This document shows, one piece after another, positions 8,870-60,086 of a DNA stretch of 64,000 bases (the stretch's first letter is position 1; each line of letters begins with the position of its first letter). The notes under the pieces were generated by a model. It was not told where the DNA came from. It did not search any database and was given only the letters and a program-made list of their open reading frames with translations. This DNA comes from Syntrophaceae bacterium UBA5744 (GTDB taxonomy: Bacteria > Desulfobacterota > Syntrophia > Syntrophales > UBA2192). The translations under genes and the position numbers were made by a program. Location of the stretch: assembly GCA_002419215.1 (NCBI GenBank), contig DIFQ01000139.1:4732-68731 (forward strand), given 5' to 3'.

Positions 8870-9619
8870 ATGGGTACACTCTTTGCGGTTTCCGCCGTGG
8901 ACTTCGGGGGGGAATTCCGGGGGAATCTCCTCCAGATGGTCGTCGATGCGGGACCGATGGTGCAGTTCGTCCTGCTTCTGCTGCTTGTCTTCTCCATCGT
9001 TTCCTGGGCCATCATCCTGATGAAGTACCGCCTCGTCTCGAAGACGGAGAAGGAAAACAACCTGTTCCTCGACGCCTACATGAATTCGAGCAAGCTCTCG
9101 GACGTGATGCCCGAGTCGAAGCGATACCCCAACTCCACGATCGCGGAAGTCTTCCGGGCCGGCTATCTCGAACTGGGGAAGATCAACAGGGCCCCGAAGG
9201 GGACGTCGCAGGATCTTCTGGATCCCTCGGGATCGGCAACCATCGAGATGAAAGGGCTCGACAATGTGGAGCGAGCCCTCCACCGGGCCTGCAGCACCGA
9301 GTCCTCCAAGCTGGAGAGCCTTCTCGGGTTTCTGGCCACGACGGGAAGCGCCTGCCCCTTCATCGGCCTTTTCGGCACCGTCTGGGGCATCATGAATGCC
9401 TTCCGCGGCATCGGCGCCCGCGGGTCGGCCACCCTTGCCGTGGTGGCGCCCGGCATCTCCGAGGCCCTCGTCGCCACCGCCTTCGGCCTTGCGGCGGCCA
9501 TCCCGGCAGTGGTATTCTACAATTACTACCTGAACCGCATCCGGAACATCTCCCTGGAGATGGACAATTTCGCTTCCGAGTTTCTCAACATCATCGAGAG
9601 GCATTACCTGCAGAAATAG
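8870..9619 (+). CDS. tolQ: Tol-Pal system protein TolQ (MotA/TolQ/ExbB channel)
   Basis: Start set at the ATG at 8870, preceded by GGAGG. TM segments and the conserved GLFGTVWGIMNAF motif. First gene of the tolQRA-tolB-pal-cpoB order. Confidence 0.85.
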   Translation: MGTLFAVSAVDFGGEFRGNLLQMVVDAGPMVQFVLLLLLVFSIVSWAIILMKYRLVSKTEKENNLFLDAYMNSSKLSDVMPESKRYPNSTIAEVFRAGYLELGKINRAPKGTSQDLLDPSGSATIEMKGLDNVERALHRACSTESSKLESLLGFLATTGSACPFIGLFGTVWGIMNAFRGIGARGSATLAVVAPGISEALVATAFGLAAAIPAVVFYNYYLNRIRNISLEMDNFASEFLNIIERHYLQK

Positions 9620-54003: not shown

Positions 54004-54172
54004 AATAAAAACGGGGCTTGCCCGTGAAAGGCAAGCCCCGTTGTCTTCCTGGCGGGTCAGGGTGGAGTTCCTCCGGCAGGCGAACTTGTCTTGAGCTTGT
54101 CGAAGGAGGGCAGGATCACCGCAGACACTTGGATTTCCAGTTGATCACTAAAACAGGCTATTCCCCGTCATT
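54004..54172 (-). ncRNA. Candidate small RNA / repeat module A, copy 1, ending in a minus-strand intrinsic terminator
   Basis: 12-bp perfect stem (54011-54022 / 54030-54041) with a 7-nt loop. On the minus strand it is followed by TTTTTATTG. The ~130 nt upstream on the minus strand are about 70% similar, by eye, to 59651-59782. Confidence 0.3.
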
Positions 54173-54182
54173 TTATTGGACA

Positions 54183-54368
54183 GGCAACAAGATACCACAA
54201 TAGCGTCATTCCCGCGAAGGCCGTTCGACAAGCCCTTCGGCCAGCTCAGGGTCGTGAGCTTGTCGAATCGACTCACGGCCCTGAGCCTGTCGAAAGGGCG
54301 GGAATCCACAAATGACCGGATACCGGATCAAGTCCGGTATGACAGGGTTGCGATGTTCAGTTGCCGCA
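54183..54368. repeat. Repeat module B, copy 1, interrupted by a ~78-nt insertion
   Basis: GGCAACAAGATACC ... CATTCCCGCGAAGG [insertion 54221-54298] CGGGAATCCACAAATGACCGGATACCGGATCAAGTCCGGTATGACAGGGTTGCGATGTTCAGTTGCCGCA. Confidence 0.75.
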
Positions 54369-54481: not shown

Positions 54482-56194
54482 GTGCAAATGATGTCTCTGC
54501 AGAATAAAGGCAAAAGCATCCCATCGGGGTCCGCGGTTCCTCAAAAACCGAACATGACCCTGAAGACCGCCGAGAAGGAGTTAATGCGGCTGGTCCAGGA
54601 ACTGCAGCGGGCAGAGGAGAAGTACCGGAATATCATTGAGAATATCGGCGTCGGGGTTGCGATGATCGACCCGGCCATGCGGATCCTTACCATGAACCGG
54701 CAGATGCGGGAGTGGTTCCCCCATGTGAACCCCTCCGCTAAGCCCTGCTGTTACAAGTCCTTCAACGACCCGCCGGCAAGAGAAATCTGTTCCTACTGTC
54801 CCACGGTACGTACACTGAGAGATGGTCGGGTCCACGAGGCGGTGACCGATACGCCATCGGGAGAAGGAGTAAAAAATTATCGGATCATCGCGACACCCAT
54901 CACGGATTCCGAGGGCCGTGTCGTGGCGGCGATTGAAATGGTCGAAGACATTACCGACCGCAAGCGCGCCGCAGAGGCTCTGCGTGTCAGCGAGCAGCGC
55001 CATCGATCCTACATTGAATTAACCGGTCAATTGGGCTGGACGACAACGGCCGATGGGTCACTTGTGGAGGACCTTCCCGCATGGAGGGCCTTTACGGGGC
55101 AGAGCGAAGAGGAAATCAAGGGTGCGGGATGGGCAAACGCCCTTCATCCGGACGATGTAGAACGCGCTCTGGAGGCATGGAACAAGGCAATCGCGACGAA
55201 AAGCGCCTATGAGGTCGAGTACCGTGTGCGCAGACATGATGGAGTTTACCGGCATTGGCTGGCCCGCGGTGTCCCTCTCTTCAGGGAAGATGGAAGCGTC
55301 CGGGAATGGATCGGCACCTCGATTGACATCACAGACATAAAACGCGCCGAGGAAGAGCTGAAGAAGTCGGAAAACATGTACCGCACCATCTTTGAAACGA
55401 CTCCTGCGGCTACCATGATCATCGAAGAGGACACGACGATATCCACGGTGAACAGGGAATTCGCGACGCAAACGGGATACGATCCGGGCGAAGTGGAGGG
55501 CAAGAAAAGCTGGACAGAGTTAATCCTGAAAGAGGATGTGGACAGGATGCTGGGGTACCATCGCCTGCGAAGGATCGATCCGGAAGCGGCACCACGAAAC
55601 TACGAGTTTCGATACCTTGACAGAAAAGGGCGGATCCGGGACGTCTACGCGACGGTCGCCATGATGCCGGGGACAAAAAAGACGGTGCTGTCCCTCCTGG
55701 ACATCACGGAACGAAAGCGGGCCGAGGAAACCCTCAGGACGATGGCCGATGACTTGAAGTCCAAAACCCATGCCCTGGAAGAGATGAATGCGGCTTTGCG
55801 GGTGCTGCTGAAACAAAGGGAGGAGGACAAGATCGATCTTGAAAAGAGGATTCTGGCAAGCGTGAGGGAGCTTGTCATCCCGCACCTGGGGGAACTGAAA
55901 AAATGCCTCTCCGGCCAAAAGGAACTCACCCATGTCCACATCCTGGAGTCCAATCTTCAGGGCATCATCTCACCCTTTGCGCAGAAGCTGTCCCTGCAAT
56001 TTTTGCATCTCACGCGGAAAGAAATCCAGATTGCCAATCTCATCAAGGAAGGCAAGACAACAAAAGAGATCGCCCGGTTCATGGATCTGTCCAAGTTCGC
56101 CATCGATACCCACCGTGCCCATCTGAGAAGAAAACTGGGCTTGACCAACAAGAAAGCCAATCTCAGGACCTGTCTTTCATCCATGACCGAGTAG
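54482..56194 (+). CDS. Triple-PAS LuxR-family transcriptional regulator
   Basis: Three PAS/PAC modules separated by DIT(D/E)RKRAEE linkers. C-terminal LuxR HTH (LTRKEIQIANLIKEGKTTKEIARFMDLSKFAIDTHRAHLRRKLG). Start is the GTG at 54482 or the ATG at 54488. Confidence 0.85.
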   Translation: MQMMSLQNKGKSIPSGSAVPQKPNMTLKTAEKELMRLVQELQRAEEKYRNIIENIGVGVAMIDPAMRILTMNRQMREWFPHVNPSAKPCCYKSFNDPPAREICSYCPTVRTLRDGRVHEAVTDTPSGEGVKNYRIIATPITDSEGRVVAAIEMVEDITDRKRAAEALRVSEQRHRSYIELTGQLGWTTTADGSLVEDLPAWRAFTGQSEEEIKGAGWANALHPDDVERALEAWNKAIATKSAYEVEYRVRRHDGVYRHWLARGVPLFREDGSVREWIGTSIDITDIKRAEEELKKSENMYRTIFETTPAATMIIEEDTTISTVNREFATQTGYDPGEVEGKKSWTELILKEDVDRMLGYHRLRRIDPEAAPRNYEFRYLDRKGRIRDVYATVAMMPGTKKTVLSLLDITERKRAEETLRTMADDLKSKTHALEEMNAALRVLLKQREEDKIDLEKRILASVRELVIPHLGELKKCLSGQKELTHVHILESNLQGIISPFAQKLSLQFLHLTRKEIQIANLIKEGKTTKEIARFMDLSKFAIDTHRAHLRRKLGLTNKKANLRTCLSSMTE

Positions 56195-56278
56195 TGTTTT
56201 TTCACACTATTCATCCGCTATTCTTTCATTATTGTTAATCAGGTAAACATTGTTTATTTTACAATTGCGAGAGAAGAG

Positions 56279-56959
56279 GTGGGTGATCAGGAGCCGCCCG
56301 GACGTCATCTAACCGCCATCGCTTCCGTTCCCCAAATCAACAGAGATCCGGCAGGAAACCAACCCTTGAACTCTGAAAGGAGTTTTTCCCCCGTGTCTCG
56401 TCAAGCCCATTCAATCAAAGCTCCCGTTCCGCCCAAAGAGGGTGCAAGCCGTATCCGAACCAAATCGGTGCGCCTTAAAAAACCCAACGGATCCGAGGGA
56501 GCGGAAACCCCGGAAATTTTCCTGTGGGCCGGATCGGAAAGCCTTTTCATTTCAGCAGACCTGCGCGGCGCGGATCCGGAAGATCTTCAGATCCGCGTGA
56601 GCGGCACACGCCTGATCTTCCACGGAACTCTCCGCCCGGGCCTAAACCCTGAAAAAGGAGGAATCCACCTGACGAAGGAAGCCCCATCGACGTTCAGCCA
56701 TGCACTGGATCTGCCCTATGAGGTCCATGCAGACGGGGCTGAAGTGCTAAACGAAAACGGGCTGATCTCGATCGTCCTGAAAAGGAAGGAGGCCAGGCAA
56801 CCAGGCGCTCGCGTCACGCAATCGTCCTTCGAGACGTCCATGCAGCGCTTTTTTGGCGAAAACGGGGTTTCTTCCAGGACCTTGAAAGACGAGATCACGA
56901 TTCTGGAGACCCTCGAGCGTTATCTCGAATATCACTTCGGGAAGGGGTTCGCCCGTTAG
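56279..56959 (+). CDS. Hsp20/alpha-crystallin-domain-like protein with N- and C-terminal extensions
   Basis: The core LFISADLRGADPEDLQIRVSGTRLIFHG ... FSHALDLPYEVHADGAEVLNENGLISIVLKRKE follows the ACD pattern. Start uncertain: the GTG at 56279, or an in-frame GTG at 56393 about 10 nt after AGGAG. Confidence 0.55.
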   Translation: MGDQEPPGRHLTAIASVPQINRDPAGNQPLNSERSFSPVSRQAHSIKAPVPPKEGASRIRTKSVRLKKPNGSEGAETPEIFLWAGSESLFISADLRGADPEDLQIRVSGTRLIFHGTLRPGLNPEKGGIHLTKEAPSTFSHALDLPYEVHADGAEVLNENGLISIVLKRKEARQPGARVTQSSFETSMQRFFGENGVSSRTLKDEITILETLERYLEYHFGKGFAR

Positions 56960-56979
56960 AAAAGAGGGGGGAAGACCCG

Positions 56980-57336
56980 ATGACACGTTCCATCCACGAG
57001 GCCTCGTGGCAAAGCAGGGAGCAGCCCGGGGAAGCGGGACGCCGGGAAACCAGGTTCGATCGTTTCCCCTGGAGCCACATCACCCAAAGCGAAAGAAAGA
57101 ACACACGGGTCACCACGTGGATCGGGTTCAGGGCCATCGTCGTTGCCCTGTCGTTTCCCGATGCCAATCCCGAAGACATCGAGATTTCCATTACGGGAAC
57201 CTGCCTTCAGATCAGGGGTGTGGCACAGAGCGATCTCGTCAGTCAGGAAATCAATCTCCCTTGCCCTGTCCAAACCCGTGCGATTCGAATCGAAGACGGC
57301 AGGGGGACGATCTATATCCTCCTGCGGAAGGAATAA
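56980..57336 (+). CDS. Second, shorter Hsp20/ACD-like protein
   Basis: ALSFPDANPEDIEISITGTCLQIRG ... INLPCPVQTRAIRIEDGRGTIYILLRKE parallels the preceding gene. Confidence 0.5.
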   Translation: MTRSIHEASWQSREQPGEAGRRETRFDRFPWSHITQSERKNTRVTTWIGFRAIVVALSFPDANPEDIEISITGTCLQIRGVAQSDLVSQEINLPCPVQTRAIRIEDGRGTIYILLRKE

Positions 57337-57579
57337 AGAACCACACGACTTTCCTGTATTCTGGAAGGAGAAGATTCGCACACCGTCCAAATGACCGTTC
57401 ATCCCGTAACCGGCTCCTGCTTCATACATGCCTGCCAGTCAATCTGATTGTTTGATTTCCGGCAGCTTCATGATCCGTTTTTTATTGATTGCGGAACAAG
57501 AAATGTCTTGCTGTCAAAGGTCTCGAGGTCAACGGGTGTTTTCTCATGGATGATTCCCCTGTGAAAAGGAGGCTGGATC

Positions 57580-58022
57580 ATGAGGATGACAGCGTCTCGG
57601 GTCGAGGAATGGCTTCGCAGGAACCGTCGAAGAATGATCCAGTGTCCCTACCAGCCGGGGAATTTAAGGATCACTCTCTGGGGCTGCAAACGGCGCAAGT
57701 CGCAGGCGAGAAGGGAGGATTTCACGGACCTGATGAAGGGGGACTACTTCGATTACGTATACAAGAACGGGCTTCTGCGGTGCCGCGATTGCAAGTTGCC
57801 GGAATGTCTCCGCACGGAATCTCGTGTTGTCGGGCCCCGCAGTGGCTCGATGATTGTCCCTGCATCGACAGGGCGCAGGAAGCGCTGAAGCGATTCGCTC
57901 CATTCGAGAGGATCGAACAAAGCATGGATCTGCATGGGCTGGCAGCGGAATGGACCGGGGCGGCCCCGCCAGAGGGTCTCCGCCCCTGGAAACAGGGCGG
58001 CTCCTCGCGTCGTGAAAAATAG
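57580..58022 (+). pseudogene. Cys-rich small gene apparently split over two frames (frameshift near 57805-57830)
   Basis: Frame 1 starts 7 nt after AGGAGG and reads protein-like up to CRDCKLPECL. An overlapping frame then reads CCRAPQWLDDCPCIDRAQEALKRFAPFERIEQSMDLHGLAAEW and stops at 58022, 10 nt before the USP start. Confidence 0.35.
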
Positions 58023-58032
58023 GAGGTGTGCC

Positions 58033-58485
58033 ATGTTCCAGCCGAAAACCATCCTGGTGCCGACCGATTTTTCCGTGTTTTCCGAAAGGGCATTCCGCAA
58101 GGCGCTCGAGATCTCGAAATCCTGTGCGGCGAAGATCCATGTCCTCCACGTCGTGAGGTTGTTGCCGTTGGCTGTGGGGGATTACTGGTTTGACGAGCCG
58201 CAGATCAGGCGGATTCAGGCGGATATCGAAAAGGCATCCCGGGACGAAATCGGGAGCTTCGTCGGCAAGTTCCCGGAAGCCGAGGGCATGCCGATCGAGG
58301 TTGACGTGCAGAGCGGCGTACCCTACGAGCAGATCGTGAAGGATGCGGCAGACAGGGGCATCGACCTCATCGTCATGGCCCCGCGCGGGAAGACGGGCAT
58401 CAAGGAGCATCTCCTGGGCGGCACGGCAGACAGGGTCATCCGTCATGCCGCCTGCGATGTGCTCATTGTCCGCGACAGGGAGTAA
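58033..58485 (+). CDS. Universal stress protein (UspA family)
   Basis: The ATG at 58033 follows AGGAGG. ILVPTDFS ... and the ATP-binding tail GKTGIKEHLLGGTADRVIRHAACDVLIV. Confidence 0.9.
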   Translation: MFQPKTILVPTDFSVFSERAFRKALEISKSCAAKIHVLHVVRLLPLAVGDYWFDEPQIRRIQADIEKASRDEIGSFVGKFPEAEGMPIEVDVQSGVPYEQIVKDAADRGIDLIVMAPRGKTGIKEHLLGGTADRVIRHAACDVLIVRDRE

Positions 58486-58593
58486 CGTTTGATTGCGGCA
58501 GACCGTTCCAGGTCTCGAGCCCAAAGGGGCCCGGGCAGGATCGACCCGCGAACGATCCGATCGCCCCGGTTTCCCTGCGACAGGAGGAAGCGC

Positions 58594-58869
58594 ATGAAAA
58601 GGGTCGAAAACAAATCGAGTCAAAGGGTCTCGTTTACCTACCACTCGCCTGACGCGGCGGAAGTCTTCATCGCCGGCACGTTTAACGACTGGGATCCACG
58701 CAAGAATCCATTCAAGAAATATTCAACGGGCTGGAAAGCCGTCAAATATCTTGCACACGGCATCTATGAATACCGATTCATCGTCGATGGGATCTGGGTG
58801 GATGACCCTGCCTGTCAGAACCGTCGGCCGAATCAATACGGGAGTGAGAATTGCGTCCTGGAGGTGTGA
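58594..58869 (+). CDS. Stand-alone CBM48 / AMPK-beta glycogen-binding-like (E-set) domain protein
   Basis: The ATG at 58594 follows AGGAGG. VSFTYHSPDAAEVFIAGTFNDWDP ... YEYRFIVDGIWVDDP is the typical CBM48 pattern. Confidence 0.75.
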   Translation: MKRVENKSSQRVSFTYHSPDAAEVFIAGTFNDWDPRKNPFKKYSTGWKAVKYLAHGIYEYRFIVDGIWVDDPACQNRRPNQYGSENCVLEV

Positions 58870-58935
58870 TTCTCCGGAAGCGAAATGTCGGCATCCTTGA
58901 TCAACCTGAATAATTCCATAAGGAGATCGTTCATT

Positions 58936-59190
58936 ATGAAAGACGCATCCAGAGAGATCTTGCGGTTCTGGAAAGTTCAATGGGAAGCGTACATGAAGTC
59001 AATGGTGGCCATGCAGGAGCAGGGGGAGACGATGCTGGAGATGATCCAGAAAAGCGGTGTCCTACAGGAAGGATCGCAAAAAATGGTCAGGGAGTGGGCG
59101 GATAAATACAAGTCAATCCAGAAGACGTATCTGGATATGGTTGAGGACCACTTCAAGAAGCTCGAGGATATTTTCGGGAGTGCCCCGTAA
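58936..59190 (+). CDS. Small helical protein, phasin-like (weak call)
   Basis: The ATG at 58936 follows AAGGAG. 84 aa, amphipathic helical, Met/Glu/Lys-rich (WKVQWEAYMKSMVAMQEQGETMLEMIQK). Confidence 0.45.
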   Translation: MKDASREILRFWKVQWEAYMKSMVAMQEQGETMLEMIQKSGVLQEGSQKMVREWADKYKSIQKTYLDMVEDHFKKLEDIFGSAP

Positions 59191-59610: not shown

Positions 59611-59782
59611 AATGAGAAAGGGGTCGTGGCTTTCAGGGCCACGACCCCTTGATTGTCCTGGTGCGTCAGTGCGGGGTCCCTTCGACAGGCGAACGTGTCC
59701 TGAGCTTGTCGAGGGGGGGCATGCTCGCTGCCGGCACCCGGACTTTCGGCTAATCGTTGAAAACAGGCCATTCCCCATCATC
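59611..59782 (-). ncRNA. Candidate small RNA / repeat module A, copy 2
   Basis: 13-bp perfect stem (59618-59630 / 59638-59650) with a 7-nt loop and a minus-strand tail TCTCATTTTTGGG. The stem sequence differs from copy 1 but the geometry is the same. Confidence 0.3.
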
Positions 59783-60086
59783 TTCTCCTCTCACGTATTG
59801 CCCCCCTGCCTGCCTCACCTGCTGCGTTTCACATCGTGACAGCCCCTGTTCATGGCGATTGGCGGCTCAACGGGCAGGACGCGAGACCGCGCCTGGGGGC
59901 GCGACGGTGCGTGTTCCCGAAATCCCCGGGCGATTTTGCAGGGTTCCGAGCGATCCCGAAGTTACTTTTTTGTAATCATAACCCGCGTTTATTGCATCCT
60001 CAACCCTGGCGGGATCATCCTTTTCCCTTGACACAATCGCCTGCTTTCTATCTATACTCCAACTCTGCATTTTGAGGTTAGACGGC

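Follow-up and report, generated by a model that had tools for sequence, protein, structure and literature searches.

Do the seven co-directional genes at positions 54482–59190 of this stretch form a functional unit, and, if so, what might that unit serve? The stretch analysed (the window) comprises 64,000 nucleotides of contig C138 (GenBank DIFQ01000139.1), one of 154 contigs in the 3.47-Mb metagenome-assembled genome of Syntrophaceae bacterium UBA5744, hereafter the source genome (labelled G000 in the comparisons). Its relatives are labelled as uncultured Syntrophaceae or Syntrophales from digesters. An initial annotation described a repeat-bracketed block and proposed that its products act on, or coat, a storage polymer or protein granule. 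As judged from sequence comparison, the seven genes do form an accessory operon, found in a few uncultured Syntrophaceae species. We read it, with moderate confidence, as a lineage-specific accessory operon or small regulon for protection against stress or starvation. The block is laid out as follows.

54482–56194, plus strand: PAS-LuxR one-component regulator, with three PAS domains, a coiled coil and a C-terminal GerE/LuxR helix-turn-helix (HTH)
56191–56210, no strand: palindrome, candidate operator/promoter, overlapping the regulator stop codon and near-invariant in six loci
56393–56959, plus strand: ACD1, atypical small heat-shock protein (sHSP) with an alpha-crystallin domain (ACD), 188 aa, matched by Pfam HSP20
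56980–57336, plus strand: ACD2, truncated ACD, 118 aa, assigned by hhalign, AlphaFold2 (AF2) and Foldseek
57580–57888, plus strand: basic four-Cys small protein, conserved core at residues 1–75, from a family without annotation
58033–58485, plus strand: universal stress protein (USP), 150 aa, matched by Pfam Usp and nearest to UspF/UspG
58594–58869, plus strand: stand-alone AMPK-beta-type carbohydrate-binding module (CBM; CBM48 clan), 91 aa, matched by AMPK1_CBM
58936–59190, plus strand: phasin-family paralogue, 84 aa, amphipathic and helical, aligned by hhalign to a family of polyhydroxyalkanoate (PHA) gene clusters

All seven open reading frames (ORFs) lie on the plus strand, as first described, and a Shine-Dalgarno-like sequence precedes each of them, in agreement with the AGGAGG-type sites noted earlier. 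The spacing had been called tight; it is not uniform, the successive intergenic gaps being 198, 20, 243, 144, 108 and 66 nt. Two gene starts were revised. ACD1 had been called as a 226-aa protein; its start is most likely GTG 56393, with GAAAGGAG 10 nt upstream, giving the 188 aa also called in relatives. The regulator most likely begins at ATG 54488 or 54491 (approximately 567 aa). The lower GC content of the block was also borne out (0.551, against 0.625 in the upstream flank, 0.659 in the downstream flank and 0.604 in the genome), and the block shows the same drop in relatives (0.57 against 0.62–0.66). Since GC at third codon positions is still high (0.63–0.81), the dip reflects amino acid composition and not obviously foreign DNA. 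Defence-system models gave no match, and an Rfam scan of the block and its gaps gave no credible match.

At least three further species of the genus share this gene order, as do four metagenome contigs, which answers the conservation check proposed with the initial annotation. The genomes concerned are G104, G139 and G117, with a near-identical contig in G026. In these relatives uvrB-uvrC stand on one side of the block, and a VKOR-like gene, a methyltransferase gene and a gene for an LTXXQ protein on the other. In the source genome the counterpart of this uvrC-VKOR site, on another contig (C5, 51221–53351), holds a lipoprotein gene and a PEP-CTERM gene instead. Homology between the source genome and G104 runs from the regulator start codon to 18 nt past the last stop codon, and the flanks differ. 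Pairwise dN/dS values (nonsynonymous over synonymous substitution rates) against three relatives fall between 0.10 and 0.47 across all seven genes. They are lowest for the phasin-like gene (0.10), the USP (0.14) and the regulator (0.15), reach 0.29–0.37 for ACD1 and are highest for ACD2 (0.39–0.47), the fastest-evolving gene of the block. All seven genes are thus under purifying selection. The block is a conserved cassette whose regulator always travels with the same effectors, even at another chromosomal site.

Variants of the block occur at the same site. Genome G045 carries the first five genes only, with its phasin-like gene alone 368 kb away. In the G117/G026 lineage the phasin-like gene contains two stops and has lost its ATG. 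G004, G091 and G129 have the uvrC-VKOR site without the block, and an MntP-like gene is present there in G004 and G045. The site is a variable hotspot, holding by species the seven-gene block, the five-gene block with the MntP-like gene, the MntP-like gene alone, or the lipoprotein and PEP-CTERM genes (for coordinates, L032:4300-4480 and 9060-9300, and L087, G004:C13:40900-42500). The contigs of G026 (C62, locus L038) and G117 (C9, locus L039) are 98.8% identical over 6.1 kb though assigned to different genera. The probable cause is either an artefact of binning or a very recent transfer, so that the block cannot be taken as established in genus g2.

Given such a hotspot, with its different genes in different species, the block could be a chance juxtaposition of accessory genes in a variable region, without common regulation or function. 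The sizeable intergenic gaps and the occurrence of some members alone point the same way. However, order and orientation have been kept in several species at 0.6–1.0 synonymous substitutions per site, the whole set including the regulator has moved together to a new site, and a paralogous triad of regulator, four-Cys protein and USP is conserved separately (see below). Chance assembly is accordingly the least probable of the readings considered here, and we regard it as very unlikely.

The present location of the block in the source genome also bears on its origin, as repeats flank it on both sides.

54036–54174, no strand: module A, left copy, one of four genomic copies of a dispersed repeat that reads, on the minus strand, like the 3′ portion of tRNA-Phe with a terminator hairpin
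54173–54368, no strand: module B, left copy, resembling repetitive extragenic palindromic (REP) elements, split by a 75–78-nt insert, with more than 30 copies in the genome
59409–59526, no strand: module B, right copy
59645–59784, no strand: module A, right copy

All copies are in direct orientation in the order A-B…B-A; the two module A copies are 72% identical and the two module B copies 84–92%. These features might suggest that the source-genome copy is the cargo of a decayed integrative island, the module A copies being remnants, similar to attachment (att) sites, of a tRNA-Phe target. On the minus strand of module A, 33–37 nt match the 3′-end of the genomic tRNA-Phe at 82–84% identity and are followed by the terminator hairpin. 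The copies are direct and 5.6 kb apart, the site differs from that of the relatives, and two further module A copies on contig C23 bracket another low-GC segment of 6 kb. Against an island stand the mere 72% identity of the module A copies and the absence of an intact tRNA from the window and of any integrase or transposase among the ORFs in or beside the block. Moreover, homology to the relatives reaches only as far as the ends of the genes and breaks off hundreds of bases short of the repeats, and the relatives carry the block without these repeats at its flanks. A clean empty site for the present location was not found: in G148, the closest relative, both neighbours are rearranged, and the response regulator gene and the kor operon each have neighbours unlike those in the source genome. 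Taken together, the position of the repeats outside the homology borders, their absence in relatives, the lack of a tRNA or integrase and the rearrangement in G148 place the block in a repeat-rich rearrangement junction rather than in a bounded element. The island origin is unlikely, if somewhat less so than chance assembly. The block is indeed bracketed by direct repeats, as first described; these belong to dispersed families, delimit no discrete element and are absent around the relatives' block. The segment on C23 (C23:4404-10631; GC 0.56 against 0.645 upstream) encodes a MarR-like protein, a HypB/CobW-like GTPase and a His-rich Ni/Co-transporter-like protein.

The first gene of the block encodes the predicted sensor-regulator. 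Its HTH scores 44.3 bits against the PF00196 cut-off of 23.5 (residues 510–558). No receiver domain was found in the protein, and only PAS domains lie N-terminal of the HTH, so that it is not a response regulator of the NarL/DosR type. In the first PAS domain (PAS1; window positions 54740–54850), residues C90, C103, C106 and H118 (C-x12-C-x2-C-x11-H) are invariant in five orthologues, and this Cys3-His set is a possible metal or Fe-S redox-sensing site.

The palindrome (A/G)TAGTG-N8-CACTAT, in the window ATAGTG-N8-CACTAT, overlaps the regulator stop codon and is followed 3′ by approximately 45 nt of near-invariant AT-rich sequence; the 70 nt 3′ of the stop codon are almost invariant across six orthologous loci. 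The palindrome is unique in the source genome at up to one mismatch. The ACD1 leader gave no covariation supporting a consensus RNA structure across the orthologues. The palindrome region is a candidate operator and promoter of the ACD1 transcription unit. In the 243-nt gap upstream of the four-Cys gene (57337–57579), short patches such as GTTTCGTCCATTG and CATACATGCC are kept in six loci without a match in Rfam, and these patches may be a promoter or operator.

Both ACD assignments of the initial annotation were sustained. ACD1 matches Pfam HSP20 (PF00011; 26.5 bits against a cut-off of 20.8; residues 90–174 of the 226-aa ORF). ACD2 has no Pfam match at E up to 1, and the NCBIfam archaeal Hsp20 model reaches only E 0.028. 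Its profile nevertheless aligns with the combined ACD1 and Hsp20 profile (hhalign 97%, E 1.2e-10), its AF2 model is an all-beta sandwich over residues 32–117 (pLDDT 75–90), and its best Foldseek matches are sHSP ACDs (the Sulfolobus Hsp20.1 ACD and Mj Hsp16.5; TM 0.77). The two proteins, encoded 20 nt apart, are only 21–24% identical. Both were said to lack the usual N-terminal arm. ACD2 in fact retains a short one, with conserved aromatic residues (F26, P30, W31), and ACD1 has a basic arm of 45 residues that contains no aromatics at all. At the C-terminus, ACD1 carries a conserved, helical extension of 55 aa with an I-T-I motif (I-T-M in relatives) approximately 45 residues past the domain. 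ACD2 has a 16-residue deletion within the domain and no C-terminal tail. Elsewhere in the source genome, three canonical Hsp20 genes stand in tandem on C40, so the ACD genes of the block encode additional chaperones.

The fifth gene product is a USP, as first annotated, scoring 98 bits against the Pfam Usp (PF00582) cut-off of 24; its nearest models are UspF and UspG (UspF model, E 1e-12). The ATP-binding motif of USPs is classically G-x2-G-x9-G-(S/T). The corresponding stretch here reads G-K-T-G-I-K-E-H-L-L-G-G-T, with a spacer shorter than in the textbook motif.

The four-Cys protein encoded upstream of the USP has a pI of 10.8 and a conserved core at residues 1–75 followed by a variable tail; it is labelled as a zinc-type small protein. 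Across five orthologous loci and 18 database relatives, the invariant residues are C22, P23, Q25, P26, G27, C36, R39, C68 and C71, and the family signature is W..NR..MI.CP.QPG.L.I(S/T)...C..R...GL..C..CPIG. The family numbers 147 representatives at 50% identity among 1.84 billion proteins, has no match in Pfam, NCBIfam or the PDB or by fold, and occurs in 43 of 401 sampled genomes of the phylum. Genes of the block type are confined to the source family, in six genomes of a 151-genome sample of the order. No homologue of the core was found in a plasmid collection. Among the long family members, one is a probable chimeric call (ABC_membrane with RsbRD_N), and no other fused domains were seen. 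An Rmf/CrpP fold was considered and rejected (13.8 bits against a cut-off of 40, marginal matches in 4 of 48 members, no PDB or fold match); a fold search with the low-confidence model of the protein (pLDDT 59.7) returned no matches.

A 177-aa ORF in an alternative frame (57489–58022, plus strand) runs across the four-Cys gene and stops 10 nt short of the USP start. One metagenome contig (L042) has the equivalent ORF, of 175 aa, annotated as a gene. The frame is open in some relatives but interrupted in others, and is therefore probably a high-GC artefact. A frameshift or recoding event was likewise rejected: in every relative the first frame yields the 75-aa core, which is conserved, with a tail that varies; the C109 paralogue, of 80 aa, terminates soon past the last Cys; and the second frame is broken by stops in two lineages.

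That paralogue belongs to a parallel module (C109:23021-30734, locus L066) encoding a 1532-aa PAS hybrid kinase, a NarL-type regulator, the 80-aa four-Cys protein, an OsmC-like protein and a USP. The C109-type four-Cys gene is present in six relatives and is adjoined by a NarL-type regulator or a USP gene in five; the module of NarL-type regulator, four-Cys paralogue and USP occurs in relatives with or without OsmC. Within the family, this favours a link between LuxR-family control, the four-Cys protein and a USP, which does not extend phylum-wide.

The last two genes of the block are those on which a link to storage polymers depends. The first encodes a CBM of 91 aa, whose assignment to the AMPK-beta type and the CBM48 clan held up: it scores 48.1 bits against an AMPK1_CBM (PF16561) cut-off of 26.8, and its best solved relatives are the CBMs of AMPK beta2 and beta1 (E 1e-9). 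The Trp residues of AMPK-beta CBMs contact sugar. In the block protein, FNDW and DGIW align with FNNW and DGQW of AMPK beta2, so that both sugar-stacking positions are kept. Stand-alone CBMs of this type were found in 26 of the 151 sampled genomes of the order. A second stand-alone gene in the source genome (C131:1741-2139) is 56% identical to the block copy over 66 aligned residues, and genes of this second type adjoin a rubrerythrin-like gene there and in three other genomes of the genus (L076, L078, L080).

The 84-aa product of the last gene had been called phasin-like. It matches no Pfam or NCBIfam model, those of phasins included (PF09361 Phasin_2, PF09602 PhaP_Bmeg and the NCBIfam phasin models), and only two of 20 members of its family reach Phasin_2, weakly (5e-4). 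Database annotations of its close family are limited to “hypothetical” and to spurious names. Its helical hydrophobic moment is high (z = 3.9, above all 500 shuffles). Distant relatives (25–38% identity) occur in 78 of the 151 order genomes, usually as tandem pairs, and the block-type profile aligns end to end with this family of PHA clusters (hhalign 98.6%, E 1.4e-15). In the source genome such a pair (C3, 34955–35599) is followed on the same strand by genes for a 527-aa alpha/beta hydrolase, PhaE (PF09712, 81 bits), class III PhaC (TIGR01836, 421 bits against a cut-off of 365; 1.6 kb beyond the hydrolase) and a MaoC/PhaJ hydratase. Six further genomes of the order were compared: all of them have PhaJ and class III PhaC genes no more than a few kb from the pair, and five also have a PhaE gene, the sixth locus ending at a contig end. 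By homology, the 84-aa protein is a divergent paralogue of the phasin-like proteins in the order's PHA clusters. The original guess therefore gains support from this homology and from the genomic context of the paralogues; every phasin model fails.

The locus on C3 (C3:28997-37281, L040) is in itself a complete one-strand PHA cluster that contains two or three small helical phasin-like genes without a Pfam or NCBIfam model, and its gene set recurs in the six other genomes. On the basis of sequence and position, the small proteins of these class III clusters are a probable new phasin family. The 527-aa hydrolase carries a GFCQGG box; its identification as a PhaC was rejected, as it matches no PhaC model.

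These two genes allow a more specific proposal, namely that the block is a dedicated storage-granule module. Under stress, its products would organise inclusions of glycogen and/or PHA, or assemble on them; the phasin paralogue and the two sHSPs would make up a surface layer, with the CBM as its glycogen anchor. In its fullest form, this would be a stress-induced layer on carbon-storage inclusions, with an atypical sHSP heteromer brought to glycogen by the CBM and to PHA by the phasin paralogue, the USP and four-Cys protein as regulatory partners and the PAS-LuxR protein as a redox switch; we put this form forward tentatively. Consistent with a role at granules, relatives of the 84-aa protein adjoin class III PhaE/PhaC and PhaJ genes in the source genome and in all six other order genomes examined, and of 23 short loci in other genomes, 12 have the hydrolase of the PHA cluster next to such relatives. 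In the CBM, the residues that align to the sugar-stacking Trp of AMPK-beta are retained, and both glycogen synthase and PHA synthase are encoded in the source genome. An affinity for polymers is plausible for the products of both final genes. sHSPs can sit on PHA granules and affect granule size, and the sHSP IbpA binds such granules (PMC10646324). Against the proposal, the polymer-related genes are the variable part of the block: both are absent from the G045 version, the phasin-like gene has decayed in G117/G026, and stand-alone copies of the phasin-like gene and the CBM exist outside the block. The block itself never lies beside polymer-metabolism genes, and the 84-aa protein of the window matches no phasin model. 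Because the two polymer-related genes are the dispensable part, the granule proposal is weakened, and a dedicated granule module is doubtful, although less improbable than an island origin.

The stress or starvation operon is preferred because of the conserved gene order with its exact boundaries, purifying selection, the domain calls, the palindrome, the parallel module, the additional chaperones and the precedents of IbpA and of the DosR regulon (below). Its operation may be pictured as follows. The PAS-LuxR protein would sense a redox, oxygen, metal or energy signal, with the Cys3-His set of PAS1 as the candidate site, bind the palindrome upstream of ACD1 and switch on the downstream genes. 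ACD1 and ACD2 would act as a two-member sHSP holdase pair, in which a C-terminal anchor of the I-x-I type, missing from ACD2, is provided by ACD1. Further stress effectors would be the basic four-Cys protein and the UspFG-type USP; paralogues of both recur next to a LuxR-family regulator at another locus of the genome. The last two genes would be optional add-ons, through which the response could be anchored at glycogen and at PHA or another hydrophobic surface. The source-genome copy would have reached its present site by rearrangement at the repeat-rich junction.

Several observations weigh against this interpretation. At least ten paralogues make up the regulator's family in the source genome, and the block is assigned as the regulator's target from gene adjacency only. 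A genome scan at up to one mismatch found no second palindrome copy before the later block genes, and the gaps of 108–243 nt permit several promoters in the block. The four-Cys family has no annotated role. Its neighbours across the phylum show no common theme, the genes not being generally beside those for USP, Hsp20 or LuxR proteins, and a NarL-type regulator is near a four-Cys gene in only one of 29 loci.

In anaerobic digesters, Syntrophaceae exist close to the thermodynamic limit and have to withstand oxygen pulses and starvation, and their stress biology is almost unstudied. The cassette would be a compact unit for such conditions, combining one sensor-regulator and its candidate operator with six small effectors. 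It also exposes two families that have no Pfam or NCBIfam model, namely that of the four-Cys protein and that of the probable phasins encoded in class III PHA clusters of the order. Should the granule proposal hold, the cassette would join sHSPs to glycogen and PHA handling, and through the surface layer chaperones would be connected with storage granules of syntrophic anaerobes in a way not described before; otherwise, it is an ordinary lineage-specific stress operon.

No papers were found on this gene combination or on phasins in Syntrophus. Several parts of the block can be set beside known systems. The regulator resembles PAS-LuxR one-component regulators (“LuxR solos” with PAS sensors), in which PAS sensors are fused directly to a GerE/LuxR HTH, and differs in having three PAS domains, a coiled coil and the conserved Cys3-His set in PAS1. 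The two adjacent, co-directional ACD genes of unequal architecture recall the two-sHSP system IbpA/IbpB, and by analogy this inequality suggests a division of labour between putatively paired proteins. Unlike IbpA/IbpB, ACD2 has the domain deletion and no C-terminal tail, while ACD1 has the long conserved C-terminal extension and an N-terminal arm without aromatics. The CBM is similar to that of the AMPK beta subunit in its score above the Pfam cut-off and its two aligned Trp positions, but it stands alone, without a kinase-scaffold or glycoside-hydrolase part. With phasins, the last protein shares small size, an amphipathic helical character and homology to a family encoded beside class III PhaE/PhaC genes; it differs in matching no phasin model, and its gene stands by itself or within a stress operon rather than among those of a PHA cluster.

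The closest likeness for the block as a whole is to the DosR (DevR) dormancy regulon of mycobacteria. DosR is a LuxR/NarL-family factor that responds to redox conditions and hypoxia and controls the alpha-crystallin sHSP gene hspX. Six USPs belong to its regulon (PMC2914252). The two systems thus share a LuxR-family regulator, sHSPs and USPs, a likeness of gene content that implies no sequence orthology. In contrast to DosR, the block regulator is a one-component PAS-HTH protein without a receiver domain or partner kinase, its sHSPs are atypical and paired, and the block adds a four-Cys protein, a CBM and a phasin paralogue.

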